This document shows, piece by piece, positions 1 to 32,434 of a DNA stretch of 64,000 nucleotides. The stretch is taken from the NCBI GenBank assembly GCA_963745035.1, contig CAVUVW010000021.1, forward strand, positions 352,001-416,000. Reading direction: 5' to 3'. Below the pieces are notes generated by a model. It worked only from the letters and a program-made list of their open reading frames with translations. It had not been told where the DNA came from and ran no database searches. The stretch's first letter is position 1. Each line of letters begins with the position of its first letter. The position numbers and the translations under genes were made by a program. Source of the DNA: an uncultured delta proteobacterium (GTDB lineage Bacteria > Desulfobacterota > Binatia > UBA9968).

Positions 1-647
1 AGTTTTGCGTTGACGCTGTTATGCTCCTGGGTGAGGCCGGTTGCGGTATCGCCGAGCCCGAACGAACGGCTACGGCTATAACCGTGGCCGCTCAAGATGT
101 GCAGGTTGACCGGCATGTCGAGATCCTGGGACGCCGCCCAGAACTTGTCATAATGCGGTGACGAAAACGGCAGCTCTGCCGGCGGCACCTGCCAGATGAC
201 CGAACCGCGCATGCCCGCTTTGCGGCAGCGCTCCAGTTCCTTCACGGCGCCGTCGATGTCGTACATCGACAACATGGCAATGCCGATCATCCGATCCGGC
301 GCGGCGCTGCAATAGTCGATCAGCCAGTCGTTATAAACCCGGCAGCAGGCCGCCTCCATCTCGCGGTCGTCGAGGCTCAAACATTTCAAGCCGTGGGTCG
401 GGTAAAGAACTTCCCCGCTGACGCCGTCGGCCGCCATCTCGGAAACGCGCTTGTTCTTTTCCTGCGCGCCGCCGGGAACGTCATTGGGCCTTTGCCCGCC
501 AAAATCGGGAGCGCGGTCTTTAAAGGCTTGCGGCATGTTTTTCTTCCAGAGCCCCGCCGGTTCGATGACGTGGGAGTCGGAGGAAATAAGAACTTCGTCA
601 ATGACAGCGTCGGTTTTTTTACCGTAGGTTCGTTCAATTATGCCCAT
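1..647 (-). CDS. amidohydrolase family protein (N-terminal part, runs off window edge)
   Basis: Not in ORF track. Hand translation from ATG 647 (AGGAG SD): MGIIERTYGKKTDAVIDEVLISSDSHVIEPAGLWK, with the DSH metal motif, then YPT, YNDW and PDR motifs of amidohydro_2 proteins. Confidence 0.85.
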   Translation of the reverse strand, partial: MGIIERTYGKKTDAVIDEVLISSDSHVIEPAGLWKKNMPQAFKDRAPDFGGQRPNDVPGGAQEKNKRVSEMAADGVSGEVLYPTHGLKCLSLDDREMEAACCRVYNDWLIDYCSAAPDRMIGIAMLSMYDIDGAVKELERCRKAGMRGSVIWQVPPAELPFSSPHYDKFWAASQDLDMPVNLHILSGHGYSRSRSFGLGDTATGLTQEHNSVNAK

Positions 648-714: not shown

Positions 715-746
715 AATGGATAATGGATAATTGAGAATCGACAATT
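715..746 (+). repeat. left arm of 32-bp inverted repeat; heptamer tandem repeat
   Basis: AATGGAT AATGGAT AATTGAG AATCGAC AATT; 30/32 identical to the reverse complement of 1210-1241. Confidence 0.95.
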
Positions 747-853
747 GGCCGGATTGACGGGCCGTGTTCGAACATCACGGCGGTGACGATGCTGCTGTTC
801 GGACGATTCTCTGCGTGATAAGAAGTTGGTTAAAAATTGATAGTGGATTAAGA

Positions 854-1211
854 ATGAAAAGAGAATATTGTCAAAGATAAGTCGTTTGCTTTTGCGCTCC
901 GGGTGGTGAAGTTGGCGAAGTATCTAGAGAGTGAGAAGAGGGAATTTGTCCTATCGCGACAGGTTCTTCGAAGTGGGACGGCGGTTGGCGCGTTGGTGAG
1001 AGAAGCAGAACACGCGGAAAGCAGAGCCGACTTTATTCACAAGATGAGCATTGCGTTGAAGGAAGCTAATGAAACGCTATATTGGTTGGATCTGCTGCAC
1101 CAGGGCGAATACATCGACGCTCAAACCTTCAAATCAATCGGATCCGACAGCGAAGAGCGAATCAAATTACTCACTGCCATAGTAAAGAGTTCGAAAGTCA
1201 CACGGCAGTAA
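854..1211 (+). CDS. four helix bundle protein (23S rRNA IVP / Avd-like family)
   Basis: (M)KENIVKDKSFAFALRVVKL...QVLRSGTAVGALVREAEHAESRADFIHKMSIALKEANETLYWL matches the family pattern. One extra A after ATG 854 (ATGAAAAGAG) shifts the frame, so the ORF track starts at 903. Confidence 0.9.
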
Positions 1212-1241
1212 TTATCCATTCTCAATTATCCATTATCCATT
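1210..1241 (-). repeat. right arm of 32-bp inverted repeat; heptamer tandem repeat
   Basis: Reverse complement reads AATGGAT AATGGAT AATTGAG AATGGAT AATT; overlaps the TAA stop (1209-1211) of the four-helix gene. Confidence 0.95.
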
Positions 1242-1242
1242 T

Positions 1243-1521
1243 TCATGAGGGCTGCAGCGGATTTTTGGAGTAGTCAGCACCGACCAAAGCGACTCCGCCG
1301 TTGCGCTCCGCGAGCTGCATGGCAAAAGCGACGGCCGCTTGGATATCTTCGACTTCAAGACAAGGATAATGCTCGATGATCCTTGCCGTTGACAGGCCCT
1401 GAGCCAAGGCATCGAGAATGATGGCAATATAAATGCGCGTGCCGCGAATGAAGGGTTTCCCTTGGCAAACCTGCGGGTCGACTATCACTCTTGCCAGCAA
1501 TTCCTGATCATTCATCGGCAT
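1243..1521 (-). CDS. DUF433 domain protein (putative antitoxin)
   Basis: DPQVCQGKPFIRGTRI...YPCLEVEDIQAAVAFA is the DUF433 pattern. Confidence 0.88.
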   Translation of the reverse strand: MPMNDQELLARVIVDPQVCQGKPFIRGTRIYIAIILDALAQGLSTARIIEHYPCLEVEDIQAAVAFAMQLAERNGGVALVGADYSKNPLQPS

Positions 1522-23912: not shown

Positions 23913-24776
23913 GTGAAGTTGGCCGACCTCTATGCCCGACCTGGGTTGACCCTCTCGGTCGAATTCTTTCCTCCAAAGACAGAAAAGGGCGAGGAAAACC
24001 TCTTTAGCGAGATCGAAACCATAAAGAGGCTCAATCCCGGCTTTTGTTCTGTCACGTACGGGGCTGGCGGAAGCACGCGCGAAAAAACCGTCGGGTTGGT
24101 CGAAGCCATTCATAACGGCTGCGGTCTCGAAGTCATGTGTCATTTGACCGTGGTCGGACAGTCCAAGGCGGAGGCGCGGGCAATCCTTCAGCGGCTCAAA
24201 GAAAAAGGCATTGAGAATTTGTTGGCGCTCGGCGGCGATCCGCCCCAGGGTACGGCCGACTGGAGTCCACATCCGGACGGCTTTCATCATGCCATCGAGC
24301 TCGTTCGCGAAGCGGCGGCGCTCGGTTGCTTTTCAATCGCCGTTGCGGGCTTCCCGGAATGTCATCCGCGCGCCGCGAGCCGCGAGGCCGATTTACGATT
24401 TCTCAAAGAAAAGATCGACGCCGGCGCGGTAGCGGTCATTACGCAGTTATTTTTCGACAACGACGACTATTTTCGCTTCGTCGAGGATCTGCGCAAGCTC
24501 GGCGTGACGGTGCCGATCATTCCCGGCGTGTTGCCGATCCTTTCGGTGCCGCAGCTACGCCGCTTTACCGCCCTTTGCGGCTCGAGGATCCCCGACAAAT
24601 TGGAGAAAGAGCTGGTCAAGGTGGAGAACGACGACGACGGCGCGGTTCAGCTGGGCATCGAGTACGCGTCGAAGCTCTGCGAGGAGCTGATCAGCTCTGG
24701 GGTGGCGGGGCTGCACTTTTATTCTTTGAACAAATCCTACTCCGTGCAGGCGATCTGCAAGAATCTTGGTCTGTAG
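23913..24776 (+). CDS. metF: 5,10-methylenetetrahydrofolate reductase
   Basis: SVEFFPPK, SVTYGAGGST, AGFPECHP, ITQLFFDN, LHFYSLN; GTG start at 23913. Confidence 0.95.
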   Translation: MKLADLYARPGLTLSVEFFPPKTEKGEENLFSEIETIKRLNPGFCSVTYGAGGSTREKTVGLVEAIHNGCGLEVMCHLTVVGQSKAEARAILQRLKEKGIENLLALGGDPPQGTADWSPHPDGFHHAIELVREAAALGCFSIAVAGFPECHPRAASREADLRFLKEKIDAGAVAVITQLFFDNDDYFRFVEDLRKLGVTVPIIPGVLPILSVPQLRRFTALCGSRIPDKLEKELVKVENDDDGAVQLGIEYASKLCEELISSGVAGLHFYSLNKSYSVQAICKNLGL

Positions 24777-31354: not shown

Positions 31355-32434
31355 GTGGCGACCAGCAAAACTCTCGATGAACTGGCCGATCACGTCGGCG
31401 GACGAGTCATAGGAGACGGCAGCGTCGTCATTCACGAAGTGGCTCCCATCGACGAGGCTGCTCCCGGAGAGATCACTTTCCTTTCCAACCCGCGCTATCA
31501 AAAATACCTGGGGGAGTGCAAAGCCAGCGCCGTGATCGTCGGCCGCGGCGCCGTGGCGCGCGGCGCGCCGAGCGCGGTGCGTAATTTTCTCGAGGCCGCC
31601 GACCCCTACGTGGCGTTTGCCAAGATTCTGCAAGTTTTTCGCCCGCAAGCGCCGTTCAGCGGCGCGGTGAGCCCGCTCGCCTATATTGACGGGACGGCCG
31701 CGATCGCCGAGGGGACGACGATCTTCCCGCACGTGTTTGTCGGCCCCGGGGTCAAAGTCGGCCGGGGCTCGGTCCTCTTTCCCGGAGTCTATCTCGGGGA
31801 AAACGTCGCGATCGGCGAAGGCTCCGTGCTCCATGCCAACGTCGTGGTGCGCGAAGGATGCCGGATCGGCGATCGGGTGATCCTGCACGCCGGCGTAGTC
31901 GTCGGCAGCGACGGGTTCGGTTACGCGGGCGCCGGCGCGGCGCGCATCAAGATTCCCCAGACCGGCGTGGTCGTGATCGAGGACGACGTCGAGATCGGTG
32001 CGAACACGACCATGGATCGCGCGACCCTCGGCAAGACGGTAATCAGCCGCGGCGCGAAAATCGACAATCTCGTGCAGATCGCCCACAATGTCGTCGTCGG
32101 CGAACACGCGGTGGTGGCGGCGCAGGCGGGCATCGCCGGCAGCAGCCGTTTGGGGCGAAATGTCACCCTTGCCGGCCAAGTCGGCGTGGTCAATCACGTC
32201 GAGATCGGCGACGGCGCCATCATTGGTCCGCAGTCGGGAATTCCCAAGTCGGTGCCGCCGGGCGCGGTTCTTTCGGGCGGCGTCGCGGCGGCACCCCATC
32301 ACGAATGGCTCAAGGTGATGACCCTGCTGCCCCAGCTGCCGGCCCTGTGGAGCGCGGTGCGCCGGCTGGAAAAGGAAATGGCGCGGCTGCTCAAAAGAGG
32401 CGAAAAGGAGAGGGACGGCGATGCTGGACGTTAA
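31355..32434 (+). CDS. lpxD: UDP-3-O-acylglucosamine N-acyltransferase
   Basis: Hexapeptide repeats, [19 protein letters not shown]. Confidence 0.96.

Follow-up and report, generated by a model that had tools for sequence, protein, structure and literature searches.

The 64-kb window analyzed here, i.e. the entire stretch of 64,000 nucleotides within contig C21 of the genome G000, harbors near its left end a small cassette in which a gene for a four-helix-bundle protein of the IVP/S23p family lies between two inverted arrays of 7-nt units (Table 1). These two arms, 32 nt each and 94% complementary with 463 nt between them by inverted-repeat search, pair at 30 of 32 positions, with an exact match over the outer 24 nt; in addition, a 17-mer comprising two and a half left-arm units, with up to 3 mismatches allowed, occurred 5 times in the window, always within the arms, vs. 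0.02 occurrences expected from 100 shuffles of the window. The stop codon of the enclosed gene contains the first positions of the right arm, which ends just short of the stop codon of the DUF433 gene; 67 nt separate the left arm from the start of the amidohydrolase gene. The guanine-plus-cytosine (GC) content is 0.44-0.51 over the cassette (701-1300), compared with 0.59-0.63 for positions 1-600 within the amidohydrolase gene and 0.61-0.70 from 1601 onward, where an AbrB-like gene is located, with the DUF433 region adjoining the right arm (1201-1700) being intermediate (0.52-0.54). A Pfam scan of the IVP, DUF433, amidohydrolase and AbrB-like open reading frames (ORFs) revealed no transposase or reverse transcriptase (RT), and no target-site duplication was seen by eye at the arm ends. 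The original prediction for this locus had described a heptamer-built inverted repeat overlapping the stop codon of an AT-richer gene, with this gene opposed to both of its neighbors and lacking a transposase, an RT or an obvious target-site duplication, and in all of these respects it was accurate. Extending the analysis to paralogues and relatives, we conclude that the cassette is an IVP/S23p gene between two complementary heptamer arrays of about four copies each, with the heptamer being specific to the protein lineage, and that the window locus is one copy of this widespread small cassette, probably a decaying one.

Table 1. Features of the cassette and its flanks (positions in the window)
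Feature	Position	Strand	Remarks
Left arm	715..746	none	heptamer array AATGGAT AATGGAT AATTGAG AATCGAC AATT; lag-7 array 714-738
Spacer, left arm to start codon	747..853	+	first ~85 nt conserved in 5 relatives
ATG (854-856) and A-run (857-860)	854..860	+	ATG one base off the domain frame in the assembly
Four-helix-bundle (23S_rRNA_IVP / TIGR02436) reading frame	858..1211	+	TAA stop 1209-1211
Right arm	1210..1241	none	reverse complement of left arm (30/32); lag-7 periodicity continues to 1245
Left neighbor, 5' part of Amidohydro_2 gene (host flank)	3..647	-	Pfam scan
Right neighbor, DUF433 gene (host flank)	1243..1521	-	stop codon 1243-1245, 1 nt from right arm

The enclosed ORF was assigned to its family by matches to PF05635 (E 1.2e-25, 90.3 bits vs. 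a cut-off of 33.8, covering profile positions 1-105 of 106) and TIGR02436 (E 7.2e-28, 97 bits vs. a cut-off of 24). We know of no function for the IVP/S23p family since its discovery in rRNA intervening sequences. The closest solved relative by sequence match is PDB 2RLD chain A (E 1.4e-39), an entry containing 5 chains of the matched sequence, and the structure of a Xanthomonas S23p protein is given as a homopentamer in a passage of PMC4990558. The four-helix-bundle call of the original prediction therefore stands as to the family, but the start of the gene had to be revised: the domain begins at nt 858, upstream of the first in-frame start codon (GTG 903), from which translation would cost about 15 domain residues, and the ATG at 854 is one base out at the A-run, such that the window copy has no intact reading frame in the assembly. 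A DNA contig from an independent study (X6, covering 636-910) has one A fewer at 857, which restores the frame, and the shift in the window copy is either a strain-specific frameshift or an assembly error. Among 12 paralogous loci of this genome, 3 have the ATG one base off the domain frame at a short A-run (the window copy, G000:C2:83397-83420 and G000:C6:36563-36590), and two further paralogues (C13:1783495 and C13:1152161) carry internal frameshifts. These three shifted copies had raised the idea of programmed +1 frameshifting at the start; however, because the X6 contig is one A shorter, we deem mutation or assembly error likelier.

The genome from which the window derives (7.4 Mb in 28 contigs; a metagenome-type assembly, 92.6% complete and 5.8% contaminated) contains 20 PF05635 matches by profile search; among the control genomes, that of Bacteroides thetaiotaomicron also gave a PF05635 match. 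We analyzed these as 12 loci, having dropped 7 fragmentary matches in an island on contig C13 and joined two matches at C13:1152161. In 11 of the 12, the ungapped inverted-repeat score of the gene's own flanks was above the 99th percentile of 300 random segments, in agreement with the expectation of the original prediction that homologues in this genome would have flanking inverted arrays. Mixing the upstream and downstream flanks between loci yielded background scores (median 8), except for loci sharing a unit or neighboring each other in the island. As judged by eye, all 12 loci have inverted arrays of a short unit on both sides, and the units vary by locus, comprising TAGGCAA, CGTGNTC, the 9-mer GTTCAAATC, TAGTGAG, AATGGAT, AGTCACC, AAAGGAT, ATTTTCG, GGGTCGA and TCGAAATCCGAA. 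Given that the other paralogues are only 12-34% identical to the window copy, we take them for old lineages, each keeping its own arms.

We asked how far this pairing of gene and unit extends among relatives. A search with the window protein as the single query yielded 80 loci (clade 1), with proteins 59-78% identical to it and with enough flank in 75; judging from record titles, these belong to Nitrospira, Desulfobacteraceae, cyanobacteria, Bacteroidota, Chlorobi, Chloroflexi, Planctomycetes, Leptospiraceae and others. In these 75 loci, the best inverted repeat was nearly always built of AATKGWN-type heptamers (AATTGAG, AATGGAT, AATTGAT, AATGGTT, AGTTGAA). Clade 2, comprising relatives of the C2 paralogue on metagenome contigs, has AGGCAAT, AGGCAAC or AGGCACT at 60-82% identity, with the units drifting to AGGGACT and AGGGATT near 50% identity, and clade 3, comprising relatives of the C17 paralogue within the same phylum, has CGGATTT, CGGATTG or GCGGAAT. 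When we strictly required an ungapped score of 14 or more, an arm of 18 nt or longer and a lag-7 self-match of 0.6 or higher, clear arms were found in 47 of 75, 25 of 61 and 16 of 25 loci of clades 1, 2 and 3, respectively, with the remaining loci having weaker or gapped arms, or none. The paired arms of the three clades have a median length of 27 nt, and longer arrays are found in other genomes (e.g. L054, L161 and L169). The strand-aware, rotation-minimized distance between units was 2.07 within clades and 3.35 between clades vs. 3.64 for random heptamers, a within/between gap that was reached in 0 of 2000 label shuffles, although the non-independence of related loci overstates this significance. 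From the sequences compared, the unit goes with the protein clade across phyla and not with the host.

As a neutral yardstick, we used 35 clade-1 genes (of 39 examined, 4 of which had stops) together with the units of 22 clear-arm loci. The mean pairwise identity of the genes was 0.63 for amino acids, 0.73 for codon positions 1+2 and 0.43 for position 3, and the identity of the consensus unit was 0.74 over the 22 loci vs. 0.47 in a register-fitting control, with positions 1, 2, 3 and 5 of the unit being A, A, T and G in 22, 21, 22 and 20 of the 22 loci, respectively. The non-coding unit is conserved like coding sequence, beyond what pairing alone requires.

With respect to pairing at the window locus, both the minimum-energy and the centroid structure predicted for either strand are closed by the arms (z -2.3 and -4.1). 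Within clade 1, the left arm had its best partner in the right arm of its own locus in 8 of 75 loci (about 1 expected), and this right arm ranked among the five best partners in 30 of 75 (about 5 expected), thus indicating that own arms resemble each other beyond the unit shared at the clade level. RNA-library contigs (X17) cover 597-854 and 866-1100, a weak hint only, as these contigs come without strand or ends and DNA carry-over is possible. Loose ends at 1207 and 1241 in contigs of X2 and X6 indicate that the arm or the DUF433 side also occurs in other contexts, while the contigs of X2 and X18 do not extend over the cassette and are uninformative about it. Although the original prediction had proposed an excised or circular RNA, or inversion between the arms, as the trace to look for, we found no excised, circular or inverted form of the cassette in the DNA and RNA contigs aligned to the locus.

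The setting of the family genes was assessed from a crude ORF map, from which 9 loci with distant neighbors, 22 with short flanks and 3 with an uncalled or distant neighbor were dropped; the calls for the 12 paralogues of the GC-rich genome disagreed with our by-eye reading and were not used. The upstream neighbor was co-directional with the cassette gene in 44 of 46 (clade 1), 34 of 38 (clade 2) and 20 of 23 (clade 3) loci, i.e. 98 of 107 in total, with both neighbors co-directional in 35, 29 and 18 loci, respectively. Given this orientation of the upstream neighbor, the cassette normally resides in host transcription units in the sense orientation. In clade 1, just 25-60 nt separate the start of the left arm from that of the domain, thus leaving no room for a promoter in typical members.

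The genome also contains heptamer arrays without a gene. Strict arrays (lag-7, four units, at least 86% self-match) numbered 73 at lag 7 vs. 22, 36, 10, 11, 0, 1, 0 and 0 at lags 5, 6 and 8-13, and many of them have an inverted partner 30-90 nt away. Under relaxed settings, we counted 261 arrays, 147 of them mostly outside crude ORFs even though such space makes up only about 15% of the genome; 150 had 3 units, 77 had 4, 31 had 5 and 3 had 6 or 7 (258 of 261 having at most five). An inverted partner lies within 150 nt in 55 of these 261 and at 150-900 nt in 14, of which 9 flank family genes. Greedy clustering of the units (single-linkage had chained them all into one family) gave AGGATCG-type (53), AACAGGC-type (50), AAAATCG-type (39) and AAAGGAT (16) as the largest families, and these families resemble the arm units of resident paralogues. 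The unit family of the window is represented by a hairpin between two genes at C9:51778-51885, with a loop of about 40 nt, and by solo arrays at G000:C10:14783-14811 and G000:C13:319741-319769. About 110 nt beyond the C10 array lies an ORF looking like a Y1-type transposase remnant, which PF01797 did not detect. Among 40 relatives searched, matches to AGGCANN arrays were abundant in 22 of 24 genomes of the window genus; the sister genus g3 had 0-1 matches per genome (11 genomes), and the clade-2 gene was also absent there.

Of the known systems with which the cassette can be compared, the ORF-bearing intervening sequences (IVSs) of 23S rRNA, known from Coxiella burnetii, Leptospira and others, share with it an S23p/PF05635 gene in the loop, a terminal complementary stem of about 28-32 bp, heptamers upstream of the ORF, a decay-prone ORF and a size of about 430-530 nt, as far as the sections of PMC4990558 on such elements describe them. 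In the IVS of Coxiella burnetii (helix 45), the 28-bp terminal stem is cut mid-stem by RNase III, tandem GACAGAT heptamers lie upstream of the S23p ORF with the 5' cut of RNase III at the first repeat, and the ORF is decaying (same sections, PMC4990558). Unlike the rRNA IVSs, the window cassette is located between protein-coding genes, has a lineage-specific unit and belongs to a genome in which arrays built of the same units, but without a gene, are scattered. RNase III cutting is a property of the rRNA IVSs and would be a putative one of the window cassette; the host genome does encode RNase III. The single 23S gene of this genome (C14:326867-329870) spans 3004 nt against a 2925-position model, without any large insertion, and the 20 family matches all lie outside it; of the IVS features, it is the complementary ends with a long stem (30/32 arms, closing folds on both strands) that are present here.

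In REP/REPIN-RAYT systems, a gene is placed between inverted copies of a short repeat, the repeat also occurs as gene-less hairpin doublets and each lineage has its own repeat. The cassette resembles these systems in having a gene between inverted repeats, gene-less hairpins in the genome and a repeat family per gene lineage. In contrast, the cassette protein is a small four-helix bundle without an HUH/Y1 domain, its repeats are tandem heptamers and not single palindromes, and the heptamer arrays persist in relatives without the cognate gene; the flanked gene is of PF05635 and not a Y1/HUH transposase. The genome has 5 Y1_Tnp matches, all off contig C21, with 1 of the 5 within 1.2 kb of an array. 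Recognizing this, and that the RAYT genes of relatives have their own palindromes, we rejected a RAYT as the mobilizing enzyme in any general sense. As compared with transposons and MITEs (miniature inverted-repeat transposable elements), the inverted ends are there, but a direct repeat (by eye), a transposase in the cassette and an association with Y1_Tnp are not; as compared with integron cassettes, the arms are on both sides of the gene and no integrase was found among 70 ORFs of the C13 island. Avd, the accessory protein of diversity-generating retroelements (DGRs), has a nucleic-acid-binding role and is a related small helical-bundle protein. One C13 paralogue gave a weak bAvd match (E 0.00096, below the cut-off), and the window protein matches PF05635 only. 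Unlike the avd genes of DGRs, the window gene has no RT nearby: a search aimed at RTs found none on contig C21, and the only RVT_1 matches of the genome belong to a broken copy located at C13:1787977-1788592. No Rfam family matched the spacer or the cassette (best E = 0.13), and neither PADLOC nor PHROGs gave a match for the cassette.

The arms are also akin to intergenic heptanucleotide repeats, i.e. the cyanobacterial short tandemly repeated repetitive (STRR) sequences, TAACTGA, GGGAATC and those of Geobacter, which consist of 7-nt units in tandem (2-6 per array), are mostly intergenic and often form convergent hairpin-capable pairs, thus matching the gene-less arrays found here (PMC4679880, PMC4692102 and PMC2700814, in the portions dealing with these repeats). 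According to these portions, heptameric repeats are over-represented and little studied, with 70-75 convergent GGGAATC pairs in Xanthomonas (PMC4692102), the heptanucleotide elements of Geobacter, some drawn as hairpins, are putative regulator sites (PMC2700814), and TAACTGA repeats have been described in Beggiatoaceae (PMC4679880). Unlike the repeats so described, the arrays here enclose a four-helix-bundle gene and their unit follows the gene lineage. A term search of these three papers, with supplements outside the search, returned no mention of the four-helix-bundle gene family, and a full-text literature search, likewise outside supplements, found no published description of the cassette outside rRNA.

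Taken together, we favor, at a probability of about one half, the reading that this is an IVS-type cassette residing outside rRNA, transcribed as part of operons, with arms that can form an RNase III-type stem and heptamers that are most simply recognition sites for a protein. We surmise that the cassette would be transcribed together with its host operon and that its arms would form a stem of about 30 bp, a potential substrate for RNase III; by analogy with rRNA IVSs, cleavage would free the cassette RNA and separate its fate from that of the host message. The encoded homo-oligomeric protein may also recognize the heptamer arrays, with each subunit contacting one unit, an arrangement which would explain both the periodicity of the arrays and their lineage-specific word. 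The original prediction of an IVS-like or mobile cassette outside rRNA is thus upheld for the unit of gene plus paired arms, which is found family-wide, while the mobility of the window copy and its excision from RNA are what we infer and do not observe. More tentatively, we envisage each IVP/S23p lineage as a sequence-specific reader of its own heptamer, with a homo-oligomeric protein ring binding about four or five tandem units, one per subunit, the excess heptamers of bacterial genomes being binding sites plus gene-less progeny of these cassettes, and rRNA IVSs representing one special case. If true, this would be a protein-repeat partnership comparable to that of RAYT and REPIN, built on a non-catalytic nucleic-acid-binding protein.

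A number of observations weigh against the IVS-type reading and the recognition role that it assigns to the heptamers. The link between unit and clade could also come from co-descent of gene and arms, and only the conservation of the unit above the third-codon level argues for recognition over such co-descent. In just 7 of 75 clade-1 loci did own arm pairs score above the 99th percentile of pairs mixed between clade-mates, although this control is uninformative because clade-mates share the unit. Over 108 loci with 3324 aligned arm positions, the arm mismatches showed no excess of G·U, with those on the sense strand comprising 88 G·U vs. 77 A·C (p = 0.44), and transversions (190) outnumbered transitions (165); selection for an RNA stem is therefore not visible in these data. 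The claim that the arms are maintained as a pair and could fold a long stem is upheld by the predicted fold closing on both strands and by family-wide pairing, but not by a G·U signature. The lone joint found in contigs, 738->1211 in one X17 contig, has just 25 letters on one side and foreign flanks, and is probably derived from a gene-less hairpin elsewhere. The window copy is antisense to both of its neighbors, an arrangement found in 6 of the 107 classed loci. Finally, the arrays occur genome-wide independently of the gene, an outcome which the original prediction had counted against itself: 69 of the 73 strict arrays are far from family genes, with only 4 within 400 nt of a family match, and two relatives, G007 and G008 (98-99% complete), hold 112 and 93 AGGCANN matches but no clade-2 gene (E <= 1e-10). 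These two genomes rule out a strict dependence of the gene-less arrays on the cognate gene, and we take them to mean that the arrays outlive it.

Among the alternatives, we consider it rather unlikely, but the most serious of them, that the cassette is a mobile or recombining element at the DNA level, with the arms as terminal inverted repeats, or as single-strand hairpins or cruciforms, used by a trans-acting enzyme, the arrays being the places where cassettes and cargo move or are swapped, the gene-less hairpins being MITE-like and RNA structure being irrelevant. Such an element would fit the occurrence of 59-78% identical proteins with the same unit family across many phyla, the varied cargo found behind a conserved left arm (family gene, truncated gene, RAYT-like gene or nothing), the position of the window cassette at a synteny breakpoint, the eleven family matches in an island of toxin-antitoxin and accessory genes and the lack of a G·U signature. 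However, symmetrical ends would not lead one to expect the upstream co-orientation in 98 of 107 loci, and neither a transposase, an integrase nor a target-site duplication was found at the window or other inspected loci; moreover, of the 5 Y1_Tnp matches just 1 is found within 1.2 kb of an array, 7 relatives from the same genus have inherited the left arm in place, and neither inversion nor empty-site joints occur in the aligned DNA contigs.

That the arrays are instead host repeats with a role of their own (regulator or UP-like sites, mRNA stabilizers or terminator-like hairpins), beside which the genes land or survive uncoupled, strikes us as improbable. The unit tracks the protein clade and not the host, with 12 loci of differing units in one genome and one unit family across phyla; 11 of 12 family genes have paired arms, while arrays occupy a small share of intergenic spacers; family genes are flanked by 9 of the 14 arrays whose inverted partner is 150-900 nt distant; and the sister genus g3 lacks both the arrays (0-1 per genome in 11 genomes) and the clade-2 gene. 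Set against these are the 73 strict arrays at lag 7 vs. at most 36 at other lags with only 4 near a family gene, the 147 of 261 relaxed arrays found outside crude ORFs (~15% of the genome), the array-rich G007 and G008 without the cognate gene, the solo array that G009 and G023 retain upstream of the amidohydrolase gene, and a literature that, in the portions cited above, treats such arrays as regulatory candidates (PMC2700814, PMC4679880). Chance similarity or an assembly artefact is scarcely credible: despite the metagenome-type assembly (92.6% complete, 5.8% contaminated) and an ATG frameshift that may be an assembly error, the arm pattern was found 5 times vs. 0.02 expected, DNA contigs of an independent study (X6) cover both arms and more than 100 independent loci share this architecture.

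As seen in this genome, the IVP/S23p family and heptamer repeats belong together, with the gene packaged between inverted arrays and the same words recurring in many intergenic hairpins, and two questions merge into one, namely whether an IVP/S23p protein binds its own repeat, as RNA or as DNA. This association also suggests that rRNA IVSs are the rRNA-resident members of a larger class of cassettes inside ordinary operons.

The history of the window copy itself can be followed in relatives. A left array of the AATGGAT/AATTGAG family is in place beside the amidohydrolase gene in 7 same-genus relatives, and the extra spacer of about 85 nt behind the left arm of the window copy, which typical cassettes elsewhere do not have, is conserved by alignment in G015, G019, G003, G021 and G014 regardless of cargo. 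This cargo differs: in G021, a family gene truncated at its 5' end, with both arms present, precedes a UbiD-family gene; in G015, G019, G003 and G014, a RAYT-like gene that has palindromes of its own but lacks a right heptamer arm precedes the same gene (UbiD-like); and G009 and G023 have a solo array at the amidohydrolase site. Y1_Tnp was confirmed by Pfam in two of the four relatives with a RAYT-like gene, and the UbiD family in G021 only. In G005, the DUF433 and AbrB-like pair is kept, with DUF433 abutting an ORF judged by eye to be an ABC-transporter ATPase, and there is neither cassette nor array. An empty amidohydrolase/DUF433 site, by which the ends of the cassette were to be defined, was found in none of the 40 relatives searched; instead, left arm and spacer are inherited in place while the cargo differs. 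By these comparisons, the window cassette appears to lie at a synteny breakpoint, with the unpublished genome G005 as the single witness on the DUF433 side. Within the genus and this unit family, a decay series can be laid out from the frameshifted window copy through the truncated gene of G021 and the C9:51778 hairpin to the solo arrays of G009 and G023. The window copy is probably decaying and no longer working, in view of its antisense orientation, its out-of-frame ATG and its location at a rearrangement junction.

The RAYT-like ORFs of the four relatives (L033, L034, L037 and L039, from G015, G019, G003 and G014, respectively) lie about 100-900 nt past the left array and are flanked by copies of a GC-rich palindrome (GGGGCGATTCACGAATCGCCC type), with PF01797 confirmed in L037 and L039; gene and palindromes together make up a classical REP-RAYT unit, located directly after the heptamer array and the spacer. 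In the window genome, 11 of the 20 PF05635 matches, many of them fragments or split, are gathered in the C13 island, a stretch of about 25 kb (G000:C13:1773837-1797097; L043:3792-15100 and L044:454-11196). They are interleaved there with genes for ParE, DUF4258, MqsA-like, PIN-like (DUF5615), Zeta, ORF6N, RadC, a DNA methylase and a DUF4143 ATPase; the island also holds a broken group II intron RT/maturase, and nearly all of its genes are on one strand.

A few minor features of the window merit mention. The minus strand of the right arm matches a sigma-70-like pattern, TGGATA-17-GATAAT (1239..1211; a consensus match only), which points into the cassette and onward to the amidohydrolase gene. 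The 7-nt period of an AATTGAT-type array automatically gives TTGATA-N17-GATAAT, and arrays of this unit family could, by their sequence, serve as promoters. GC-rich solo arrays of the CCGCGAG and GGCGCGC types, at 24365-24388 and 31555-31575 of the window, pass the relaxed lag-7 filter; in our view they reflect chance or coding periodicity and have no connection with the cassette. The 5' part of the amidohydrolase gene has a tandem paralogue 1.1 kb leftward, at G000:C21:350900-351539, which is 92% identical over 640 nt.

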